Source of the DNA: Verrucomicrobiota bacterium
GTDB taxonomy: Bacteria; Verrucomicrobiota; Verrucomicrobiia; Limisphaerales; UBA11358
DNA: 64,000 bases
Assembly (NCBI GenBank): GCA_049510295.1
Contig: JBEKZC010000002.1
Coordinates: forward strand, 57,797 to 121,796
Direction: 5' to 3'
Below, in pieces: positions 27,013-38,216 of this stretch. Made by a program: the position numbers and the translations under genes. The notes under the pieces were generated by a model. The model did no database searches, was not told where the DNA came from, and saw nothing but the letters and a program-made list of their open reading frames with translations. Position 1 is the stretch's first letter; the number at the start of each line of letters is the position of its first letter.

Positions 27013-27474
27013 CTACCGGGTGCCGGTGGCGGTGAACAACGTGGAAAATAATGGAGCGGAGCGGGCGGATGCGAGTTGGACCAGCGGGGTTTTATCATCC
27101 GGCATTTCCCGGGCCGGAGCGTTGGTCAGCCCCGGGCAATAATACAAGTCCGCCCAGACATAAGCCGTGGCGAGATAACCGTGGACTTCAAATTGTCCGA
27201 AATTTCCCGTGCTGTTGGGTGGATCAACTCCCAGCAAGACCACCACGTTTGCGCCTTTCCCGGCCGCATCCTGTCTCATATGCGCCATGGCATCGTCAGC
27301 GTAATGCCGGGTCAGGTGATCGTTAAATGAAGTCCACCCGACATGCACTCCGTCCGGGGGTGGCGCTGCCAAAAAAAATACGTTACTGGAAGATACTTTG
27401 GCGGGTGTTGTCTGGTTGGATGCACAACCGGCGGCAAACAAGGAAAGACACAGGACTATAATTGTTTTCCCCAC
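27013..27474 (-). CDS. Lipoprotein, YbjQ-like fold possible
   Basis: Lipobox AAGC; AMAHMRQDAAGKGANVVV resembles 'AxxxLxxxAxxxGANAVI'. Confidence 0.6.
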   Translation of the reverse strand: MGKTIIVLCLSLFAAGCASNQTTPAKVSSSNVFFLAAPPPDGVHVGWTSFNDHLTRHYADDAMAHMRQDAAGKGANVVVLLGVDPPNSTGNFGQFEVHGYLATAYVWADLYYCPGLTNAPAREMPDDKTPLVQLASARSAPLFSTLFTATGTR

Positions 27475-27706
27475 GCATCCAATTTAACAAAAATGGCTTG
27501 TTTGGCAATTGATTAAAAAACTTGAGCTGTTTGGAAGTTAAAAGCGTTCTTAACAGCCGACCGTGACATTCCAAGATTAAGAGGCGTCCAATGTCCGGAA
27601 AATGTCTCTTTTGACCGTTTTTGTCCGATAAATGAAATTTGTTGTTTCAAAATTGTTGCCAGGCTGACGCACGATAGTCACAAGCTGTCTTCAATCTTGT
27701 GCGCAG

Positions 27707-30700
27707 GTGACCATTGAGCGACATCTGCTGCTGCAGGAACTGACCTTGCGTCCTTCCGGCGAATGGACTCCCAGCCATCATGAATGGTTCATGGTACGGG
27801 TGGCCGAGGGCGTCGGTTACTGGCTGCAACCGGGTACCGCCCGCCAGCTTTCCGTGGGGGACGGTCTGCTGACGAGCAGCAGCAGCAACGGAGTGTTGCG
27901 GGCCAGCCAGCTCGGTCCGCTCAAATTGCAGTTTTTCAGCGTCCAGCCACAGTACCTCAACGGCCTGCTTACGGTCGCGGAATGGCATCAACTCGAAGTG
28001 GCCCCCAACAACCTGACGTCGCAAATTTCCATCTTCACCGCCGGCGAGCCGCTGGCGCAACGGTTCACGCGGCTGGCGGAGCAAACGCAGCGGGAGGGTC
28101 TGCCCGTGCGTTGCGGGCTGCTACAGCTTTGGGCGAACGCCATCGCCGGTCTGCTGCCGGCGCCGGCGATGGAATCCGCCGAGGGCGGCAGGCTGCATGA
28201 GCGTTTCCGGCAACTGGTCGGCCAGATGCCGGAGGTCGAACTGTCCCAATGCTCGTTGCGCGACCTGGCCGGGCAGCTCAATTGCAGCGAACGACATTTC
28301 AGCCGCCTGTTCCGCGAGGAGTTCGGCGTGCCGTTCCGCGCGCGGCAGATTGAATTGCGACTCCAACGCGCGCGGCAACTGCTCACGAACTCGGACGCCA
28401 AAATCATCAACGTTGCCTACGACAGCGGTTACCAGCACCTCGGCCTTTTCAATGTGATGTTCAAAAAACGTTTTGGTATGACGCCCAGTGAATGGCGGCA
28501 GCAGAACCTGCGCAGAAGCCTTCCGCCCCAATCCCGGAAAAATCTTCCGAAGTCTGTGGCCCGTGCCGGCGTCCTGCTCGCTCTGTTCATCTTGAATTGT
28601 ATTTCACCTGCAATCGCACAGACGAATTCAATCGTTGTGCCTGCCCAATCCAGTCCGACGGCCCCGGCGGAGAGCAACGCTGCTCCTTACTTTAACGTCC
28701 GGGCCTATGCCGTCAAAAGCAACACGTTGCTTGCCACCAACATCCTGACTCGCATCTTTTCCAAGTACACCGGCACGAACGTCGGTTTGGACGAGATAGT
28801 GAAAGCGGCCTCAGACCTGCAATTGGAATACCGCAACCAGGGCTATCCAACGATGAGCATCGCAATCGCGCAGCAACAAATCATCAACGGCACTGTTACG
28901 ATGAACGTTTTCCCGATGGCGTTTCCCCAGATTTTGGTGTCCGGCAAACGTTACGTCAGTTCCGGTAACCGCACACAAGTCAGCTCGAACTTGTCGGCTG
29001 CCGAACCGGCTTTGCCGCAAATGGCCCCGGCCGTGTTCGCCCCCACCACCAATGCCGTTCCACTTGCAACCGGCCATCAGACGGTAGCAGCCGGTCCTGA
29101 AGCGATGGCCCGGGTGCGCGCGGCGTTGTTCCAGAAGCTGGCCGAGTTGAACGCCAAGGAACAAGACACACGGGTTCACGTGGTTTCCACGAACGCCGGG
29201 CCGAGGTTTGCCGTGGACAAATATCTGGTCATGGGCAATTCCGTTCTGCCGCCGGAGGCCATCGCCCGGGCCATCACCAACGTGGACGGCGCTTTCGGCA
29301 CCAACACCAGCTTTGACGGGATTCGCGCGGTGATGATTGAACTGCAAAAGGCGTATCGCGAACGCGGCTACGTCACCGTGTCCGTCGGCCTGCCCCAACA
29401 GAAACTTACCAACGCCACAGTGAAAGTGAAGGTGACTGAGGGCCGGCTCGCCGCCATCAACGTCACCGGCAACCGCTACTTCAGTTCCAACGACGTGATG
29501 CGCTCCCTGCCAAGCCTGCAAACGAACATACTGCTCAACTCGCACATTCTGCAGCGCGAACTGGACAACGCCAATGCCAGCCGCGACCGGCAGATTTATC
29601 CCGTCATCGGCCCCGGCCCGGAGCCGGACACCAGCGAACTTACGCTCAAGGTCCAGGACCAGTTGCCCCTGCACGCACGGCTGGAACTGAACAATCAGGC
29701 CACGCCCGGCACGCCCGACCTGCGCGCGAATTTGAACGTCCAATACGACAATCTTTGGGACCTCGAGCACCAGGTCGGCATCCAATACAACTTCACGCCC
29801 GAGCAACTCAAAAACAGCGACCCGTATTATACCACCCCCTTCGATAATCCGTTGATTGCCAATTACAGCGCTTATTATCGCCTGCCGCTCGGCGGTTACA
29901 ATTCGGTGGAGCAGCAGGTGGACGCCAATCCCGGCAGCTTCGGTTACAACGAAATCACCCACCAGTTCCAAGTGCCTCCGCCCACCGGACGGCCGGAACT
30001 GACGCTCTACGCCAGCCGTTCGACCTCGGACACGGGTGTTCAAATGGGGCCACGCAATGTAATTATAGGCGCTACTCCTAGCGGGAATCCTACAAATCTG
30101 GAAGCCATCGGGACTCAGACAGCAGGTGAGAATGTTACTCTGAATGAGGGACTGGGCTTCAAATTCTCCCTGCCCTTGCCGGCCTTGGACAAGCTTGCCT
30201 CCACACTTACTTTTGGCGCGGATTATAAAAAGTATCAGGCCAATAGCGCCAACGCTAACATTTTTTATGCGTTGACCAGCACGACCAACAATGGTTCAGC
30301 ATATAAGTTTGGCGATGTACTTTACACACTTCAGTCGGTTCGGCCGACGGCGGTGGATTATTTTCCCCTGAATGTTGGCTGGAACGGCTCTTTGCCCGAC
30401 ACCTTGGGGACAACTTTTTTCAACGCTCAAGTCAATTTCAATATTCTCCCGATTTTTTCAGAGGAAAACACCCAAGTAACCACAACGAATGTAACAACGA
30501 CTGAAACGAATGTAGTTACAACCACAAAGACAATTCATGACCACTCCTTTTCCAGCGTTGCTTATACGACAAATGCCCGCCCTCATTATGTGACGCTGCA
30601 ACTCGGAGCCAACCGCATTCAGACGATTTACAAAGACTGGTCAGTGAAGTTTCACGCTGATGGCCAGTGGGCCGACGGTGCGCTGATCAGCAACGAACAA

Positions 30701-31069
30701 TATGCCATGGGTGGCACGGCAGGCGTTCGTGGCTATCAAGATGGCCAGGCCTATGGCGATACCGGCTGGCGTTTCTCCATCGAACCACAAACGCCCCTCA
30801 TGAACATCGGCAGGGTCGGCAACGAGGGACATGAAGAGCCTTGCTGGGTTCGCGCCTCGGTGTTCCTGGATTATGGCAGGATTTATTTGCTTGCCCAACC
30901 ATCACCCGGCAGTGACAGCCACGAGTCATTTTGCGGTGCGGGTTGGGCCATGACCGCCAATATCGGCAGTCACATGGACGGGCGATTGACGGTCGCCTGG
31001 CCCTTGATCAGTCACGCCGGGGAATCTGACGGCGTTCACGTCTATTTCGGCATTGGTGCTCAATTTTAA
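27707..31069 (+). CDS. AraC-family regulator fused to a ShlB/FhaC (TpsB) outer-membrane transporter
   Basis: AraC HTH (SERHFSRLFREEFG, IINVAYDSGY, FKKRFGMTPSEWR), internal signal-like segment ending AIA-Q, POTRA repeats (YRNQGY, YRERGY), VRGY loop motif, terminal Phe. Confidence 0.85.
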   Translation: MTIERHLLLQELTLRPSGEWTPSHHEWFMVRVAEGVGYWLQPGTARQLSVGDGLLTSSSSNGVLRASQLGPLKLQFFSVQPQYLNGLLTVAEWHQLEVAPNNLTSQISIFTAGEPLAQRFTRLAEQTQREGLPVRCGLLQLWANAIAGLLPAPAMESAEGGRLHERFRQLVGQMPEVELSQCSLRDLAGQLNCSERHFSRLFREEFGVPFRARQIELRLQRARQLLTNSDAKIINVAYDSGYQHLGLFNVMFKKRFGMTPSEWRQQNLRRSLPPQSRKNLPKSVARAGVLLALFILNCISPAIAQTNSIVVPAQSSPTAPAESNAAPYFNVRAYAVKSNTLLATNILTRIFSKYTGTNVGLDEIVKAASDLQLEYRNQGYPTMSIAIAQQQIINGTVTMNVFPMAFPQILVSGKRYVSSGNRTQVSSNLSAAEPALPQMAPAVFAPTTNAVPLATGHQTVAAGPEAMARVRAALFQKLAELNAKEQDTRVHVVSTNAGPRFAVDKYLVMGNSVLPPEAIARAITNVDGAFGTNTSFDGIRAVMIELQKAYRERGYVTVSVGLPQQKLTNATVKVKVTEGRLAAINVTGNRYFSSNDVMRSLPSLQTNILLNSHILQRELDNANASRDRQIYPVIGPGPEPDTSELTLKVQDQLPLHARLELNNQATPGTPDLRANLNVQYDNLWDLEHQVGIQYNFTPEQLKNSDPYYTTPFDNPLIANYSAYYRLPLGGYNSVEQQVDANPGSFGYNEITHQFQVPPPTGRPELTLYASRSTSDTGVQMGPRNVIIGATPSGNPTNLEAIGTQTAGENVTLNEGLGFKFSLPLPALDKLASTLTFGADYKKYQANSANANIFYALTSTTNNGSAYKFGDVLYTLQSVRPTAVDYFPLNVGWNGSLPDTLGTTFFNAQVNFNILPIFSEENTQVTTTNVTTTETNVVTTTKTIHDHSFSSVAYTTNARPHYVTLQLGANRIQTIYKDWSVKFHADGQWADGALISNEQYAMGGTAGVRGYQDGQAYGDTGWRFSIEPQTPLMNIGRVGNEGHEEPCWVRASVFLDYGRIYLLAQPSPGSDSHESFCGAGWAMTANIGSHMDGRLTVAWPLISHAGESDGVHVYFGIGAQF

Positions 31070-31087
31070 ATGCCATGACCAACAACA

Positions 31088-31109
31088 TGTCACCAATTTG
31101 TAACGTACG
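31088..31109 (+). promoter_or_regulatory. Pho-box-like site upstream of tpsA
   Basis: TGTCACCAATT|TGTAACGTACG, 11-bp spacing, 40 nt before the ATG at 31150. Confidence 0.7.
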
Positions 31110-31149
31110 GTCGCACGCGATTGCCCTAAACTTAAAAATTAGGATTGTT

Positions 31150-34100
31150 ATGCGCACACTGTATCGCCACTCCAAGTTCCGCCGGCTGGTTACCGCGGTT
31201 CTGATGCTTGGTATTGCGCTGGACGCGCCGGCCAATCCAACAGGCATGACCGTGCATGGCGGTTCCGCCACCGCCACCAGCAGCGGTTCACAACTCACCG
31301 TCACCACGACTTCGCAAAACACCGTCCTCAATTGGCAGAGCTTCAACATTGGTGCCGGCGAGACCACGATTTTTCAGGAACCTTCCACCACCTCAATCGT
31401 GTGGAACCAGATCAACAATGCGAACCCGTCGCAGATTTACGGCAGTCTCCAGGCCAATGGCATCGTGGTGCTGCTCAATTCCTCCGGTTTTTATTTTGGA
31501 CCTAACTCGTTTGTGAGCGCCGCCGGGCTGGTCGTTTCCACCGCGAATTACATCCCGCCGCAAAATTCCGGCGGCGGTTGGGAGTTCAACGGCCCGCCCC
31601 CGCTCGCCAGCATCGTCAACTACGGGCAGATCAACATTGGCCAGGGTGGCTCGGCATTTTTGATCGCCGACCACGTCGAGAACCACGGCACCATCAGCGC
31701 GCCCGGCGGTACTGTTGGCTTGGCGGCGGGACAGACCGTGCTCTTGAGCGATCGTCCCGACGGTCGCGGCATGAGCATGCAGGTCACGCTGCCCAGCGGT
31801 TCAGTGGACAATGAAGGCCGGCTCATCGCCGACGGCGGAACGATTGCCATGAACGCCAAAGTGGTGAACCAAAATGGTTTCATCCAGGCCAACTCGGTGC
31901 AGAATGTCAACGGCACCATCGAACTCGTCGCTTCCGATCAACTGACGCTGGGTGCGAACTCTCAAATCATCGCCAGCGGTGACAATTCGCCGGCCGGCAG
32001 CGCTGGTGGCAATGTGACGCTTCAATCAGGAAAAGATTTCAGCGACAGCGTTGGCAGTCAAATCATCACCACCGGTGGCACGCAAGGTGGTAACGGCGGC
32101 GACGTCGAAATCAGCGCGCCAAACGTCCTGTCGCTGAATTCCAGCATCAACGCGCGGGCGCAGGCGGGTTGGACGGCGGGGAAATTGTTGCTGGACCCGG
32201 ATTACATCATTTTGGACACGACCGGCTCCGGCAGCGCCGGCAGTGGTACCGTGTTGGCCGGGAGCAATCCCGGCAGCACGCTGGATTTGAACGTGAACAG
32301 CGCGTTCGCCAACCTTGCGGTTTCCACGATCATTCTTCAGGCCGTGTATGACATCACGCTCGCCAGCGGCACGTCGTGGAACCTGAGTCAGACCATCGGG
32401 GCAAATTTCGGAGGTGTGACCAGCGGCCAACTGACGCTGGAGGCCGGGCGCAACATCATCTTTCAATATGACAACGTTTCTCAAAATGGCTCTTCAATTT
32501 CTGACGCCAACAATTGGTCCATCGCCCTTTATGCCGGGGTCAGCGATTTTACCCAGCCAACGCCAACGGTCACACCTGGCAAGGGTTTAATCTCGTTCTT
32601 CGATGAATACGATCCAAACAACCCTCAACCCATCACCCAACCTAGTGGATACATTCAAACCGCCACGGGGAACATCACCTTGGTTGCCGGGCAGGCCATT
32701 ACAGTAGGTTCTGGATATGTGATCACGACGGGGGGTGGCAGCATCAGCGCCCATGCCTTGGCGGGAAACATTGACACCGGCAACTACGCGGAAGGCTACA
32801 GTTTTCTTGGTCAGCCTAATTTGAGTGATGGTTTGGGCGGCATCAGCACCGAAGCGGGCGGTGATGTGACGCTCATCGCAGGTGGTGACGTGAAAAGTGT
32901 ATTGCCCGGCAGCGGTGTTTATTATTACGACGGCAATCCAGTGCCAATCAACAACGACGATTACATGACGGCGGGTTCCGGTGCTTATGGCTCCCAACCC
33001 GGGAATGTGACCATCGTGGCGGGTGGCAATGTGACCGGTAATTATCTCGTGGCCAACGGCACGGGCGTCATCTACGCCGGGGTGAAAATGGTCAACGGCG
33101 TTCCCGTGGACGCCAATGGCAATCCCGTCACGGATGGCAAAAGTTATGTTTTGGATTCGAGTTCCACGGGCAGCGCCGGGACGGCGGACAATGAACTGGC
33201 GTTGAATCTGATCACGGGCGGCTGGACGGTGGACGCGGCGCAGGACGTCTACCTCCAGGAAGTCCGCAATCCCAATGGCGTCTTTGACATCAATGGCGGA
33301 CGCTCTAACGTCCATAAATTTAATTACGCGGCTGGCGACTATGTTGATTTGAACGCGGGAAACCTGGTGCAGTTGGGCGCAGATCCCTCGGTGCTGCCAC
33401 GACCGACGGGCATCCAGGTGCCATTCATTTATCCCTCCATCTTGAATATCACTGCGGGTGCGGGTGGTGTGGAATTGGTGGGCGGCAGCACCGATCCATT
33501 TAACCAATTGATTTTATTCCCTTCACCGCAGGGAAGCCTCACCATCAACACCACGGACGGCGGCTCGCTTTTCAGTGACCTGGCGTCTTCTGGCGGAGTC
33601 CCCCAAATTTTCAATCTAATCGTCTCGGACAGCGGCAGCCTGCAACTTACCACGAGTTCCTCCGATGCGAGCTGCACCTTTGGCATAAACGATCATGCCG
33701 CCTCGCCGATTCATGCCCCCACACTGACTGATCCCGACAATTCCACCCCGATCGCCCTGAACATCTCGGGGGATATGAGCCTGGTGTTGCTGGCCGCTCC
33801 CGAGGCGGCGCAAATTAATGTGGTTGGCAACATGTACAACTGCCGGTTTCAGGGCATGAACTTGTATGCCAACGACGTAACCAGCATCAATGTCGGTCAG
33901 ACCGCCAAGGAAAACATGGAGAACAGCGGTTTGCTCAATCGCAACACGGATTCCGGCATCACGGTGGGTGGTGACATCATTAACCGGGGCGCTTTCACCT
34001 CCGTTACCCTTGATTTGACTCAGACTGGCGTGCAAGCCCCGGACATGGATTATCTTTCAGAAGCAATAAACAACGCAATTGGCAGCACTTCCATTTCGGC

Positions 34101-35865
34101 AGCCACACTGACCACGAGTTTATATTATAATCCCCAAACCGGTGTCCTGACCTATCAGAACATCTCCGGGGTGAGCATTGCCAGTGTTCTGAACCTGCTG
34201 CAAAATTTGACGGTCCAAGTTTACCAAAATGGCGTCCCCGAACTCGACAGCAATGGTAATCCCGTAACGACTACCGTTTCCGTCTTGACCTCCGCAACCG
34301 CGCAAGCACTTCTGGCTCAATATAACGCGGAGAACGCGTTCAGCGGGATTCCTGCCGGTTCGGGGCCTCCTGACGGCACTTACGGTTACACCATTGGCGG
34401 CGGTGGACAATTCAACATTACGGCACGGACCATAGACCTGGGAACCACCGCCGGGATCCAATCGGAGGGCGTGGGGCTTTATACGGTTCGCGGCAATTAT
34501 CCACTCGCCAGTTTGTTTGGCAACGGAGGCGTGTTCGATCATGGGGCCGACATCACCATCACCACCACCGGGAACCACTCCGAGGGAGAAACTGCCGGCG
34601 ATCTCGTCGGAGACTTGGACATGTATTCCAGTTCCATCGCCTCTTTGCAGGGCGGCAATATCACCATCTACGCCGGCGGAGATATCAATGCCGGCTCGGC
34701 GGATTTTTCCGTCAACACCGCTTCTGCTCGCGGCATTTATTCGACGGATCAAGGCAATGTTTTTGTTTACGCCGACGGGGACATCAATGTCAATGGTTCC
34801 CGGATTGGCGTCTATGACACACGCCAGGACAATGGTTCCACGACGCCCGGCGGTTCCGTAACCGTGGTGTCCAGGAATGGCAATATAGACGCGGGAAGCG
34901 GTGGTTCCGGGTTTGTGGGCGTCAGTTCTTATCTGGTTAATCCCGACCAGTCGGTTACCGCGGAGTCATCAACCATTCCGGGCAGCGGCATCATGGAAGT
35001 TTCGTACACCCAAAACGGCAATATCTTGATTGAAGCCCCCAATGGCTCGGTCAACGCCGCTGCGGGTGGCATCCTCCAACTGCTCTTGAACGGGCCTCCA
35101 CTTCCTGAATCAACAACTCTTTTTGGTTTGCCGCTTAATCATGCAGCCCTGGCAAAAATGTTTGATCTGGCGCTTAACGGCAAGATGAAGGCCGCTCTGG
35201 ACTTGCAACAGGTTCTCAATGGCAATCCAGGAAATAGTGTGGTGGATGTTTTTGCGGGTTATGAATTGCAACAACTGGATGGTTCCGGCAATCCCATTGT
35301 GGATGCCTATGGCGACCCAGTGATCACAGCCCTCAATCTGTCTGAAGGCACACTGGTGAAAACATCCGACAATCAGGATATAACCGCCACCGGATCGGGA
35401 GTATTGGGTGCCGGCACGGTAACCATGGATGCTTCCGGTAACATCACGGGAAACATTTTTACCCTCGGCGGTTTAAACATAACGGCCGTTAACAACGTTG
35501 ATGTAAATGCTTTGGGACTTGGCCCTGTTGTTATCGTTGCAGCCAACCTTGGTCCTAGCATTATTGTCGGTATCCAAGGTGTCTCTGCTACCGGCGACAC
35601 GAGTGGCGCTTCGTTATTATCAAACAACCAAGTCAGCGGCGGCCAGAACAGCATGGCTGCCGGCACGGCTGCGGATGCGGCCAGCCAGGGAGCGGCCAGT
35701 GAAACTTCCACCAGTCCAGCCAAAAATGACGACACGACTGCCACCGATGACGACGTGAAGAAAAAAGGCAAGGCGGCGGCCACGGTGCAAAAGAAGGGCC
35801 GCGTGACCGTTTTGTTGCCGCCGAAGAATTTATCCCAAAACCAAACCTCAAGTAACCATTTATGA
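31150..35865 (+). CDS. Filamentous haemagglutinin-family (TpsA) exoprotein with a DUF3739-like C-terminal region
   Basis: Signal peptide then NPTG, LNWQSFNIG, SQIYGSLQANG TPS domain; beta-helical repeats; GGNITIYAGGDINAG...VNGSRI...SRNGNIDAG; start set at ATG 31150. Confidence 0.88.
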   Translation: MRTLYRHSKFRRLVTAVLMLGIALDAPANPTGMTVHGGSATATSSGSQLTVTTTSQNTVLNWQSFNIGAGETTIFQEPSTTSIVWNQINNANPSQIYGSLQANGIVVLLNSSGFYFGPNSFVSAAGLVVSTANYIPPQNSGGGWEFNGPPPLASIVNYGQINIGQGGSAFLIADHVENHGTISAPGGTVGLAAGQTVLLSDRPDGRGMSMQVTLPSGSVDNEGRLIADGGTIAMNAKVVNQNGFIQANSVQNVNGTIELVASDQLTLGANSQIIASGDNSPAGSAGGNVTLQSGKDFSDSVGSQIITTGGTQGGNGGDVEISAPNVLSLNSSINARAQAGWTAGKLLLDPDYIILDTTGSGSAGSGTVLAGSNPGSTLDLNVNSAFANLAVSTIILQAVYDITLASGTSWNLSQTIGANFGGVTSGQLTLEAGRNIIFQYDNVSQNGSSISDANNWSIALYAGVSDFTQPTPTVTPGKGLISFFDEYDPNNPQPITQPSGYIQTATGNITLVAGQAITVGSGYVITTGGGSISAHALAGNIDTGNYAEGYSFLGQPNLSDGLGGISTEAGGDVTLIAGGDVKSVLPGSGVYYYDGNPVPINNDDYMTAGSGAYGSQPGNVTIVAGGNVTGNYLVANGTGVIYAGVKMVNGVPVDANGNPVTDGKSYVLDSSSTGSAGTADNELALNLITGGWTVDAAQDVYLQEVRNPNGVFDINGGRSNVHKFNYAAGDYVDLNAGNLVQLGADPSVLPRPTGIQVPFIYPSILNITAGAGGVELVGGSTDPFNQLILFPSPQGSLTINTTDGGSLFSDLASSGGVPQIFNLIVSDSGSLQLTTSSSDASCTFGINDHAASPIHAPTLTDPDNSTPIALNISGDMSLVLLAAPEAAQINVVGNMYNCRFQGMNLYANDVTSINVGQTAKENMENSGLLNRNTDSGITVGGDIINRGAFTSVTLDLTQTGVQAPDMDYLSEAINNAIGSTSISAATLTTSLYYNPQTGVLTYQNISGVSIASVLNLLQNLTVQVYQNGVPELDSNGNPVTTTVSVLTSATAQALLAQYNAENAFSGIPAGSGPPDGTYGYTIGGGGQFNITARTIDLGTTAGIQSEGVGLYTVRGNYPLASLFGNGGVFDHGADITITTTGNHSEGETAGDLVGDLDMYSSSIASLQGGNITIYAGGDINAGSADFSVNTASARGIYSTDQGNVFVYADGDINVNGSRIGVYDTRQDNGSTTPGGSVTVVSRNGNIDAGSGGSGFVGVSSYLVNPDQSVTAESSTIPGSGIMEVSYTQNGNILIEAPNGSVNAAAGGILQLLLNGPPLPESTTLFGLPLNHAALAKMFDLALNGKMKAALDLQQVLNGNPGNSVVDVFAGYELQQLDGSGNPIVDAYGDPVITALNLSEGTLVKTSDNQDITATGSGVLGAGTVTMDASGNITGNIFTLGGLNITAVNNVDVNALGLGPVVIVAANLGPSIIVGIQGVSATGDTSGASLLSNNQVSGGQNSMAAGTAADAASQGAASETSTSPAKNDDTTATDDDVKKKGKAAATVQKKGRVTVLLPPKNLSQNQTSSNHL

Positions 35866-36695
35866 CCACCATGCTCATACATCCCATCCTCGCCTCCGGC
35901 GCGTTGCAGTTCGCCTTCGAAAAGGCCACGATCGAAGGCAAAATCACCATCGGTTCGCTGTTCATCCTGTCCATGTTCAGTTGGACGATCATCATCACCA
36001 AGTTTCGCCAGCTTTCCATCGCGCGGCGGGCGGCCAAAAAATTCTTCGCCGCCTACAGCGCCACGCGCGATCCACTGGACATCAAACGCAAGGGCGAGAA
36101 CTACGAAGGCGCGCCCGCTTACCAGCTTTACAGCCGCGCGGCCGACGAGCTGGATTACCACCTCAAGCACAACCCCGTCATCGTGAAGGACCGGCGCCGC
36201 ATCAGCGCCGCGTCGTTTGAAGCCGTGAAGGTGACGCTGGAGGAAGCCGCCGCCACCGAGGCCATGGCCTTGGAAAAGGGCATGATCGTGCTGTCCACGG
36301 CCGTGGCCGGCGGGCCGTTCATCGGTCTGCTCGGCACGGTTTGGGGCGTCATGGAAACGTTTGCCGGCATTGCCCGGGCCAATGCCGCGAGTCTTACCGC
36401 CATGGCGCCCGGTGTGGCCGGCGCGTTGATTGCCACGGTCACCGGCCTGCTCGTCGCCATTCCCGCCATGTTCGCCTACAACTTCATGGTCACCACCATC
36501 CGCCACATCACGCAGGAACTGGACGGTTACGCCACCCGTTACGCCACCCAGATTGAACATGCCTACGTGGACAACCGCCCCCTCTCGGAGGAACTCAAGC
36601 AGGCCAACGAAGCGCTGGCCGTGAGCCTGGTCGCCGCCCTCAAGGGCGACGAGAATGTGTTGCGCAACACGCCGGTGTTCGCCGCCGAACGTTAA
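35862..36695 (+). CDS. exbB: MotA/TolQ/ExbB proton channel subunit
   Basis: GPFIGLLGTVWGVM, APGVAGALIATVTGLLVAIPA. Confidence 0.9.
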   Translation: MTTMLIHPILASGALQFAFEKATIEGKITIGSLFILSMFSWTIIITKFRQLSIARRAAKKFFAAYSATRDPLDIKRKGENYEGAPAYQLYSRAADELDYHLKHNPVIVKDRRRISAASFEAVKVTLEEAAATEAMALEKGMIVLSTAVAGGPFIGLLGTVWGVMETFAGIARANAASLTAMAPGVAGALIATVTGLLVAIPAMFAYNFMVTTIRHITQELDGYATRYATQIEHAYVDNRPLSEELKQANEALAVSLVAALKGDENVLRNTPVFAAER

Positions 36696-36707: not shown

Positions 36708-37121
36708 ATGAAGAAATGTTCCCATTCCGAGCACGAAACGCTCACGCAGTTGAACATCACGCCGTTGCTCGACCTGGCGTTCGTGTTGCTGGTCATTTTC
36801 ATCATCACCACCACACCCATTGTGAATGACCTTGATCTGAACCTGCCGACGGCGGCGAGGCACCAGAAAGACCCGCCGCGCAAGGCCAATTACATTTCCG
36901 TTCAGGCCGACGGGAAAATTTATTTGAATACCAAGAAGGTGGGCATAAGCGACCTGTTGCAAACGCTCGTGGGCCTGCGCATGGACGACCCGGACTTGAA
37001 CATCGTCGTGCGCGGCGACGGCAAGACGAAATACCGGCAGATTCGCGCTGTGCTCGACGCCTGCCAGCAGGCCAACGTCATGAAAGTGGACCTGGCCACC
37101 GAACCCGCCGGCCAGTTTTAA
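36708..37121 (+). CDS. exbD: ExbD/TolR subunit
   Basis: LNITPLLDLAFVLLVIFII, VVRGD. Confidence 0.9.
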   Translation: MKKCSHSEHETLTQLNITPLLDLAFVLLVIFIITTTPIVNDLDLNLPTAARHQKDPPRKANYISVQADGKIYLNTKKVGISDLLQTLVGLRMDDPDLNIVVRGDGKTKYRQIRAVLDACQQANVMKVDLATEPAGQF

Positions 37122-37122
37122 C

Positions 37123-37800
37123 ATGCAACCGCAAACCCAGCCGCGCAAACCGCGCAACTCGTCGAAGGTGAACCTGGCCATCTCGGTCACCTTCCACGTG
37201 GTGCTGGTGGTGGCGTTGTTTTACCTGGCGGCCCGCCAAGGGTTTCTGGGCAAGCAACTTCAGAAAATCTCGGTGGAAATGGTGAGGGAAAAACCGCCGG
37301 AAAAACCCAAGGAACCTGAAAAACCGAAAGTCGAGCCGCCCAAGGTGGAAACGCCGAAGGTCGAAACCCCCAAGATGGTCGAAATGCCCGCGCCCCAGCC
37401 GACGGCCGTGGCGGCGGTCACCGCGCCGCCGGCCATCGCGCCGCCGTCGGTCGATCTGCCGTCGTTTGAATTCGAAGGCGGCAAGGCGGTCGAGACCAGC
37501 TCCGATGCGGTGCAGGTTTACAAAGGTTACCTGGAATATGCGTTGCGGTCTAAATGGAACCGGCCGGATGACCGGCCGGATGACAATTACGTGGCCGAGG
37601 TGGAAGTGGCGGTCAACCGCACGGGCGACGTCAGCGACCCAGCCTGGAGAAAAGGCTCCGGCGACCCGAAATGGGACGAGTCCGTGAAAAAGGTGTTTGC
37701 CACGGTCAGCCGCCTTGACCATCCGCCGCCGACGAATTTCCCGCCGCGGGTGACCATCCGGTTTGACGTGCAGGAGGAAACCGAACCCGTGTTGCAATGA
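37123..37800 (+). CDS. TonB/TolA-like energy transducer
   Basis: N-terminal TM with SxxxH, Pro/Lys/Glu linker, C-terminal KGSGDPKWDESV domain. Confidence 0.82.
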   Translation: MQPQTQPRKPRNSSKVNLAISVTFHVVLVVALFYLAARQGFLGKQLQKISVEMVREKPPEKPKEPEKPKVEPPKVETPKVETPKMVEMPAPQPTAVAAVTAPPAIAPPSVDLPSFEFEGGKAVETSSDAVQVYKGYLEYALRSKWNRPDDRPDDNYVAEVEVAVNRTGDVSDPAWRKGSGDPKWDESVKKVFATVSRLDHPPPTNFPPRVTIRFDVQEETEPVLQ

Positions 37801-38216
37801 AAAAGATCTCCCATTCCCATCATAGCACCCTGAACGAGCTGAACATCACGCCGCTGCTGGACCTGGTGTTTGTTTTGCTGGTGATCTTCATCATCACCAC
37901 GCCGCAGTTGATGAACAACCTGGAAATGAACCTGCCGTCGGGCAAACCACCGCCGAAGAAGGCGGCTGAGCCGAAGATCAACAAGATCGCGGTGGACGGG
38001 CGGGGGCAAATCACCTTCAACAGCGAAGTGGTCACAGTGACGCAATTAAAAGAAACGCTGCAGCAACTCAAGGCGGCCGATCCCGGACTCAGCGTGGTGG
38101 TGAAAGGCGCCGACGAGGTGGATTACCAGTTCATGGTCAACGTTCTGGATGTCCTCCGCCAGCTCGACATCACCAAGGTGGGTTTGGCGACGGAAGCCGG
38201 CGCGACTAACCCATAA
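37797..38216 (+). CDS. exbD: Second ExbD/TolR subunit
   Basis: LNITPLLDLVFVLLVIFII. Confidence 0.9.
   Translation: MKKISHSHHSTLNELNITPLLDLVFVLLVIFIITTPQLMNNLEMNLPSGKPPPKKAAEPKINKIAVDGRGQITFNSEVVTVTQLKETLQQLKAADPGLSVVVKGADEVDYQFMVNVLDVLRQLDITKVGLATEAGATNP

Follow-up and report, generated by a model that had tools for sequence, protein, structure and literature searches.

An AraC-type regulator and a two-partner secretion transporter encoded as one chain with a predicted internal signal peptide in Limisphaerales

Results

A regulator and a transporter in one open frame

The DNA analysed here, referred to as the window, is a stretch of 64,000 nucleotides (nt) from contig JBEKZC010000002.1 of a peat-bog Verrucomicrobium of the order Limisphaerales, whose metagenome-assembled genome consists of 123 contigs. 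Its gene at 27707-31069 (+) is a single open frame of 1120 codons plus stop with a GTG start, and it encodes, in this order, an AraC/XylS regulator, a basic linker, a signal-peptide-like segment (AIA↓QTN, the arrow marking the predicted cut) and a TpsB transporter of the two-partner secretion (TPS) type with a duplicated POTRA domain. The start of the fused protein, MT[IV]ERHL, is common to the homologues, and all Pfam matches on the protein (HTH_18, HTH_AraC, POTRA_2 and ShlB) exceed the curated cut-offs. A first-pass annotation, made by a model from the letters of the sequence, had already described an uninterrupted frame of this length, and the frame is indeed open throughout.

The DNA-binding domain of the regulator, a double helix-turn-helix (HTH) at amino acids (aa) 163-270 (28193-28516, +), is matched by HTH_18 (PF12833) at aa 187-266 with an E-value of 4.5e-24 (85 bits, with a cut-off of 33.6) and by HTH_AraC (PF00165) with 55.1 bits (cut-off 26.6). 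AraC-type DNA-binding domains were also matched in a sequence search of the PDB, and 13 residues of the HTH region are invariant among 51 homologues. The invariant HTH residues, the AraC-family gene beside the TPS genes of unfused relatives and a conserved upstream block (both described below) are indirect hints that the AraC part may bind DNA and control transcription. We modelled the fused protein with AlphaFold2 (AF2), using the 51 homologues in the alignment, and obtained a mean predicted local distance difference test score (pLDDT) of 73.9 and a predicted template modelling score (pTM) of 0.49. In this model, strands at residues 10-79 and helices at 90-146 precede the helical HTH region at 163-270. 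The putative sensor or dimerisation domain, aa 1-160 (27707-28186, +), is the beta-rich part with the helices after it, at a block pLDDT of mostly 70-90; the beta-rich fold and its helices are seen in the AF2 model only, and the N-terminal 168 aa match no Pfam family even at E ≤ 1. Of the "cupin-like/AraC HTH" region proposed in the first-pass annotation, the HTH half is thus borne out by Pfam and the cupin-like half is not.

The POTRA domains and Omp85/TpsB barrel that had been proposed for the second half are supported by Pfam, AF2 and Foldseek alike. POTRA_2 (PF08479) matches two stretches, the better one at aa 501-579 with an E-value of 8.9e-26, and ShlB (PF03865) matches aa 955-1060 (6.6e-13, 49.2 bits with a cut-off of 22.7). 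POTRA1 (aa 495-590) and POTRA2 (aa 591-665) lie at 29189-29701 (+), the barrel (aa 666-1120, ending in GIGAQF) at 29702-31066 (+); the corresponding parts of the model are POTRAs at 501-587 and about 594-662 and a barrel at 673-1119, and the POTRA region also matched CdiB in the PDB. The best structural matches in the PDB were CdiB (6wim, 4.3e-28) and FhaC (4ql0, 4.6e-23), followed by BamA. The source genome also carries a second TpsB paralogue, unfused and without the AraC part, in a 741-aa frame at G000:C32:33494-35302 (-), which is 42-44% identical to aa 483-1120.

In total, three POTRA folds are present in the AF2 model. The extra N-terminal one, aa 323-419 (28673-28963, +), aligns with aa 495-594 at 36% identity over 100 aa (E 7e-17), is well folded in the model at 328-411 (pLDDT 85-91) and is flanked by disordered linkers on both sides (300-325 and 419-467). 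The suspected duplication of the first POTRA is therefore confirmed, as AF2 folds both copies as POTRA units. Even very close relatives differ in the extra POTRA: homologues of about 950 aa lack it, as does the nearest neighbour by the AraC part (P0034, 977 aa); together with its linkers it is absent from most fused relatives and occurs in unfused ones too. In an RNA-library contig that is 90-95% alike (X19 record 3), 94 nt replace the 520 nt at 28644-29165, so that the frame is kept with 142 codons fewer. Between the second linker and POTRA1 lies an amphipathic helix, aa 464-486 (AMARVRAALFQKLAEL; 29096-29164, +), modelled at low pLDDT, whose AR-AL--K--EL pattern is conserved in the alignment of homologues. 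We take it to be a possible counterpart of the H1 plug helix of FhaC.

The junction resembles a signal peptide

The junction of the two halves contains RKNLPKSVARAGVLLALFILNCISPAIA-QTNS, in which the first-pass annotation had seen a basic stretch, a hydrophobic core and an AxA site; all three are there, with the AIA ending at A304. It can be read as ...FGMTPSEWRQQNLRRSLPPQSRKNLPKSVAR / AGVLLALFILNCI / SPAIA ↓ QTNS. The basic linker, which would serve as the n-region, covers aa 271-286 (the RQQNLRRSLPPQSRKNLPKSVAR region; 28517-28564, +) and is closed by R286; AF2 models 271-285 at low confidence and a lone helix at 282-303. The predicted internal signal peptide proper (28565-28618, +) consists of an h-region of 13 aa (A287-I299) and a c-region (S300-A304, SPAIA) with a proline at -4, and the cut predicted for signal peptidase I (SPase I) falls between A304 and Q305, that is, between nt 28618 and 28619. 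The precursor has no signal peptide at its N-terminus, and aa 287-304, which come after the AraC part, are its sole signal-like segment.

The n-, h- and c-regions are of canonical form, and their features recur in the homologues. The n-region is 15-26 aa long with a net charge of at least +3 (mean +5.4) in 114 homologues. Among the 119 homologues that could be parsed, 117 of them fused, the strictly uncharged hydrophobic run has a mode of 10 aa (range 9-22), the distance from the start of the h-region to the cleavage site has a mode of 18 aa, and small residues stand at positions -3 and -1 in every case; the pattern [AGSTVLIC]x[AGSCT]↓Q[TMISA][NDSGHT] fits 106 of the 117 fused proteins. The (-3,-1) site is equally found in all 53 parsed fused loci of the species-representative set described below, 35 being of the AxA↓QTN type and the others of types such as VKA↓ET, AFA↓ED and ALA↓AD. 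A crude pattern for N-terminal signal peptides has 790 matches in the source genome, and the tripeptide that follows most often is QTN (5 cases); at least eight unrelated, ordinary N-terminal signal peptides end in AxA↓QTN, and the fused gene holds the sole convincing internal occurrence. By this comparison, A↓QTN is the ordinary predicted cleavage context of the organism and not a special motif. Genes for SPase I (three loci over the cut-off), RseP (one) and SppA (one) are present in the genome. The internal segment has the appearance of a substrate of SPase I.

We also considered QTNSIVVPA as a TonB box at the N-terminus of the mature TpsB and rejected it, because QTN is the general post-cleavage motif of the genome and IVVPA is not conserved in the fused family. 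A similar stretch, VIVVPA, comes directly after the signal peptide in another protein of the genome (543 aa, contig C58), which was judged TolC-like by eye only.

The spacer behind the hydrophobic run is often short. The distance from the run to the first POTRA strand is below 30 aa in 34 of 138 fused proteins, and it shrinks to 10-23 aa in the two-POTRA members of about 900 aa. In eight homologues (P0011, P0014, P0032, P0033, P0044, P0046, P0049 and P0051), a second signal-like segment of about 30 aa with its own methionine (MTFLRSH...SAAE) is inserted after AQTN...SPPA. This insert is similar to the signal peptides that unfused TpsB genes encode, and it looks like the remnant of an exchange in which a fused 5' part recombined with an unfused tpsB.

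The fusion is conserved

A search for the same architecture in other genomes, which the first-pass annotation had suggested, found it widely. In a word-indexed protein search, PF12833 and PF08479 occurred together in 117 of the 120 relatives among the matches listed (55-100% identity), many of which carry the Joint Genome Institute (JGI) name [quoted passage not shown]. Identical or near-identical proteins are encoded on several independent contigs (P0001-P0004). A HMMER search of 1.84 billion representatives with the junction fragment (aa 150-420) gave 97 matches at E ≤ 1e-30, and among the 150 matches listed about 30 further clusters at 50% identity, 600-977 aa long, show the HTH end, basic linker, hydrophobic core and POTRA.

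From a collection of species-representative genomes, 79 loci were compared. The two parts lie in one stop-free frame at 59 of them and in different frames at two, TpsB stands alone at 17, and one locus is cut by a contig end. In the two loci with different frames, L057 (G017:C8) and L061, the frameshifts are inside tpsB, away from the junction; these could be pseudogenes or long-read assembly errors. Apart from a few odd labels, the record titles are Verrucomicrobiota, Limisphaerales or "subdivision 3". Among 301 genomes drawn from the order, the HTH part was found inside a frame of at least 600 aa in about 34 genomes of about 21 families (counted by hand). In a draw of 401 genomes from the phylum, with six candidates scored per genome, the junction fragment had no match at E ≤ 1e-25 in the 398 genomes outside the order; besides the source genome (G000), one genome of the same order matched, with an unfused AraC. 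Several public records that hold this Verrucomicrobia-type locus (L053, L060, L077, L078, L087, L123, L052, L091, L095, L098 and L099) are titled Bifidobacteriaceae, Acidoferrum, Acidiferrales, Sulfopaludibacter or Sulfotelmatobacter. They look like mislabelled or misbinned assemblies rather than a spread to other phyla.

Sequencing runs gave the same picture. Half or more of the sampled words of 27300-29300 were found in 11 of the 24 runs listed, all 11 being peat or wetland metagenomes. DNA contigs from two runs span the junction without an indel (X2 record 11, covering 28330-28814 with 0 differences, and X6 record 27, covering 28191-28965), and a 1574-nt RNA-library contig covers the AraC part and the junction (27619 to 28644) and continues in tpsB from 29165. 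The four runs compared consist of assembled contigs, which carry no information on transcript starts, strand or level, and those from RNA libraries, being 90-95% alike, come from a relative and may include DNA, so they are no proof of a single transcript. The first-pass annotation had asked whether relatives encode two separate genes, whether reads show a stop or frameshift, and whether TpsB starts at an internal ATG such as that in FGMTP. Separate genes do occur in relatives (the 17 loci above); a stop or frameshift at the junction was not seen at the 59 one-frame loci or in the DNA contigs of the two runs, and a methionine in the linker is present in only 6 of 140 fused proteins. The fusion architecture is real and conserved, and it is not the result of a lost stop.

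Split relatives

Both halves also exist as separate genes. Standalone AraC orthologues, found at eight loci of the same genus, are 48-67% identical over the first 265-290 residues or so, align from residue 1, and end 10-40 aa after the HTH without a hydrophobic tail. Unfused TpsB orthologues are 44-51% identical from about aa 300 onwards and have their own methionine and signal peptide. Directly upstream of the unfused TPS genes of three genomes (G016, G019 and G014), on the opposite strand, lies an AraC-family paralogue (34-38% identical), and in G004 and G016 a 65-66%-identical AraC orthologue is located just beyond the TPS-adjacent paralogue. An AraC gene beside unfused TPS genes is the usual layout of a dedicated regulator.

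In a quick tree built from 51 fused and 8 standalone AraC domains and 2 paralogues, the standalone genes fall inside the fused clade at no fewer than three places and fused forms occupy all deep branches. With branch support from the Shimodaira-Hasegawa-like approximate likelihood ratio test (SH-aLRT) only, a midpoint root and several long branches, this nesting is provisional, and on that footing the two halves seem to have been fused early and to have been split or exchanged later.

The region upstream is shared as well. When the 200 nt before nine AraC starts (seven fused and two standalone) were aligned with MAFFT, the sole conserved block was that at 27640-27683 (+) in the window, a TTGTTTCA-AAT-GT...CCGAAAC-like sequence that lies about 25-65 nt 5' of fused and standalone araC starts alike. 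It could be a promoter or operator. Among the 9-mers shared 5' of the nine araC starts, no repeated operator was found.

Genes downstream and upstream

The fused gene heads a tight array, tpsA-exbB-exbD-tonB-exbD, in which neighbouring genes overlap or are separated by at most 12 nt. The tpsA gene (31075-35865, +) encodes an exoprotein of 1596 aa with a TPS domain (PF05860, 1.2e-25), a DUF3739 domain (PF12545) and a C-terminal GRVTV[IL]LP. It is followed by exbB (35862-36695, +; PF01618, 2.6e-28), whose start overlaps the tpsA stop, a first exbD (36708-37121, +; PF02472, 2.8e-29), tonB (37123-37800, +), encoding a Pro/Lys-rich spacer and a TonB_2 C-terminal domain (PF13103, 2.2e-11), and a second exbD (37797-38216, +; PF02472, 8.1e-27), whose start overlaps the tonB stop. 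No Shine-Dalgarno motif is present at any gene start of the operon. Upstream of the fused gene lies a divergent 153-aa open reading frame (27013-27474, -), whose N-terminus is like a lipoprotein signal (...LFAAGC) and which matches no Pfam family.

The operon context, tpsA and the Ton genes, was missed in the first-pass annotation, and it accompanies the fusion elsewhere. We searched 18 fetched loci by tblastn with the window proteins, and 16 had enough flanking DNA. The series tpsA-exbB-exbD-tonB(-exbD) follows the fused gene at 10 of the 12 fused loci with enough downstream DNA (one of them cut inside exbB; the exceptions are L039 and L044), and Ton genes were found at none of the four unfused loci (L033-L036). 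As the sample is small and the genomes are related, this co-occurrence is a lead and not a statistic.

The TpsA proteins of the group (35563-35862 in the window; L027-L043) all end in GRVTV[IL]LP after an acidic/Lys-rich stretch, whether Ton-linked or not, and this tail looks like a TonB box. A complex prediction of the TpsA tail with the C-terminal domain of TonB scored 0.58, with the best of three controls at 0.00, a run agreement of at least 78% of contacts and a partner pLDDT of at least 68. The mark it passed is reached by 58 of 80 solved complexes and by 2 of 110 mismatched pairs, and scores up to 0.60 are those of 7 of the 80 and of both passing mismatches, so the support is weak. The prediction used custom alignments, and because TonB-TonB-box complexes have already been solved, the pass may reflect likeness to them.

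Discussion

We found a gene in which an AraC-type regulator is continued, through a signal-peptide-like segment, into a TpsB transporter. Both halves are ordinary members of known families and the join is not; the conserved architecture is well supported, and the mechanism discussed here is our reading of it. We favour, with moderate confidence, the view that the gene encodes a natural two-product precursor that is cut into an AraC regulator and a TpsB transporter. The first-pass annotation had read it as a polyprotein split by signal peptidase into a membrane-tethered regulator and a transporter, with transcription coupled to export of the pore, and our results support this reading in part. 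The first 270 residues would form a complete AraC/XylS-type regulator that folds in the cytoplasm. The basic linker, of about 16 residues, and the 13-residue core would then engage Sec as an internal signal with the N-terminus inside, the TpsB part would be threaded into the periplasm, and SPase I would cut after A304. The mature TpsB, beginning at Q305, would be inserted in the outer membrane and secrete the neighbouring TpsA. The regulator would keep a C-terminal tail of about 34 residues (linker plus signal peptide) and might act from the membrane as a stub, or be freed once the tail is clipped by RseP or SppA. The asparagine and Ser-Pro in the core of the window protein are presumably of the helix-weakening type found in substrates of site-2 proteases (S2P), which we take as a hint only. 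The most likely target would be its own operon, tpsB-tpsA-exbB-exbD-tonB-exbD. One pore would be made per regulator molecule, and the regulator would become available only after its pore has been passed on for export. On the basis of sequence we infer the use of Sec, the cleavage, what the stub does and where it ends up, and which promoter is its target; cleavage fits all the evidence of this kind that we gathered.

Several observations weigh against this precursor model. The signal would sit behind a folded domain of about 270 residues, and our criteria for signal peptides are hand-made rules. Hydrophobic runs of 17-22 aa occur in 18 of the 119 parsed homologues, where stable anchors are possible. 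In the eight homologues with two signal-like segments, cutting the first alone would strand TpsB in the cytoplasm, and tandem signals would conflict topologically. Finally, standalone genes nest in the fused clade in the quick tree, so the fusion would be dispensable in some lineages.

The long hydrophobic runs also bear on the alternative that the chain is never cut. The protein would then be anchored permanently in the inner membrane and link a cytoplasmic DNA-binding domain to an outer-membrane barrel, reporting secretion or Ton activity like a one-piece ToxR or FecA-FecR. Formally, the architecture is that of a single-pass transmembrane regulator; the disordered linkers and the extra POTRA could add reach, and the fused form co-occurs with exbB-exbD-tonB-exbD, a force transducer between the inner and outer membranes. 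However, a stable ToxR-like anchor does not agree with what the sequences suggest, as the core is too short in most members (10 aa is the commonest length), a small-x-small site follows in every parsed fused homologue, with A↓QTN as in the secreted proteins of the genome, and the spacers before POTRA1 are short. The periplasm is about 20 nm wide, and the 10-23 aa and two POTRAs of the members of about 900 aa are too short to span it, so that we judge an uncleaved chain unable to reach the outer membrane. The extra POTRA and its linkers, moreover, are shared with unfused relatives and lacking in most fused ones. We therefore consider an intact, envelope-spanning chain very unlikely. An assembly chimera or a stop lost in one genome has a negligible chance of explaining the gene: the source genome is a metagenome assembly in 123 contigs, and L057 and L061 are frameshifted, but the fusion is carried by the independent contigs P0001-P0004 and by 59 species, its junction is clean in two further runs, and both halves contain many invariant residues.

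Two further explanations accept the gene as it is and assign it another use. TpsB might be made mainly from an internal start before the hydrophobic core, with the fusion a minor or tolerated by-product of a lost stop. The in-frame codons ATG258 (the methionine of FGMTP, aa 258 of the fused protein) and GTG284 precede the core, and starting at GTG284 would give MARAGVLL...AIA↓Q, a textbook signal peptide; the second signal-like segment of the eight homologues is likewise preceded by a methionine. A test for Shine-Dalgarno motifs proved non-discriminating and was set aside, since no gene of the operon has one and a missing motif at the internal codons is thus uninformative. Yet Val284 is unconserved, as is the linker methionine, and the residue at the FG[x]TP position is methionine in 62 of 140 proteins, valine in 39, leucine in 19 and one that cannot be a start (T/A/I/E/Q) in 20. 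A neutral fusion should often gain stops after the HTH, whereas 59 of 79 loci keep one frame and the two frameshifts are elsewhere in the gene, and ribosomes that start at codon 1 would still make the full precursor. Internal initiation as the main route to TpsB thus seems unlikely to us. It is also conceivable, if rather unlikely, that the chain is cut and nothing is coupled by it: the fusion would merely ensure co-expression, and the AraC stub, released or degraded, would behave like the standalone orthologues. The regulator evidently works unfused, as orthologues in the same genus that nest among the fused ones indicate, and fusions of neighbouring partner genes are common. Against this, the fusion has been kept in about 21 families, and the conserved length of the basic linker (15-26 aa) suggests selection on the junction, which is a weak argument.

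The precursor model can be taken further by including the Ton genes. In this extended form, SPase together with RseP or SppA would make each export of a TpsB release one AraC activator, an export-licensed positive feedback that needs no sensor; ExbB-ExbD2-TonB would grip the GRVTV[IL]LP tail of TpsA and drive a surface filament with the proton motive force (pmf), and the regulator would be born on the pore of the machine that it controls. This combination is speculative, and we would give it, as a whole, a small but real chance of being right.

Compared with known TpsB proteins such as FhaC, CdiB and ShlB, the transporter half has the same ShlB-type POTRAs, Omp85-type barrel and C-terminal aromatic residue, and its gene is likewise followed immediately by a tpsA that encodes a TPS domain. 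It differs from them in that its signal peptide lies behind a 270-residue AraC regulator, a third, duplicated POTRA is present in the subfamily of the window, and exbB-exbD-tonB-exbD continue the operon. AraC/XylS regulators of adhesin or TPS operons are known, an example being Rns acting on etpBAC (10.1101/362178). The fused regulator belongs to the same DNA-binding family, and a dedicated regulator beside a TPS operon is also what we see in the unfused relatives. Those AraC proteins, however, are free cytoplasmic proteins, whereas the fused one shares a chain with the transporter and has an N-terminal domain without a Pfam match.

The closest parallels to the proposed processing come from other systems. 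The anti-sigma factors RsiV and RsiP are cut by signal peptidase first and then by S2P, which also cleaves liberated signal peptides (PMC10202637). The fused protein would resemble them as an N-in single-pass chain whose cytoplasmic domain is regulatory and whose signal-peptidase site faces outwards, and the genome encodes an S2P (RseP) that could free the cytoplasmic part. In RsiV and RsiP, a sensor domain is cut off in response to a ligand; in the fused protein a whole outer-membrane transporter would be cut off, probably constitutively, and the cytoplasmic part itself would bind DNA. ToxR, TcpP and CadC likewise combine a cytoplasmic DNA-binding domain, one hydrophobic segment and an extracytoplasmic domain, but they have OmpR-type winged helices and stable anchors, unlike the AraC-type domain, the core of about 10-13 residues and the peptidase site seen here. 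The main text of a paper on such regulators (PMC10269533) contains no mention of AraC, HTH_18, POTRA or "signal peptide", and its supplementary lists could hold such proteins.

Cleavage at internal sites by signal peptidase also occurs in the polyproteins of flaviviruses and hepatitis C virus (HCV). A further case is iRhom2, in which such a cut frees a cytoplasmic or nuclear factor (PMC7618786). The logic is the same, in that an N-terminal cytoplasmic fragment acts elsewhere; these cases belong to another domain of life and another machinery and have no homology to the fused protein. Neither an AraC-TpsB fusion nor a TPS operon linked to Ton genes was described in what our searches of full-text literature brought up; supplementary tables were outside their scope and could list such proteins. 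Within the text available to us, PMC4104836 has no occurrence of "HTH", "AraC" or "fused", and PMC12204202 none of "two-partner", "TpsB" or "Omp85".

If the precursor is cut as predicted, it would be the first bacterial case, as far as we have searched, in which a housekeeping signal peptidase makes a transcription factor and an outer-membrane transporter out of one product. The gene would also offer a natural system for seeing how Sec deals with a signal behind a large folded domain. If true, the model would describe a simple means, free of sensors, of matching how much of a regulator is made, and when, to the export of the machine under its control. Judging from the linked Ton genes, there may be two-partner secretion systems with a coupling to the pmf, which is outside the current picture of type Vb secretion. 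Finally, the family is common in Limisphaerales from peat, bog, lake and soil metagenomes, so it may play a part in the way that these abundant, uncultured bacteria handle surfaces or polymers.

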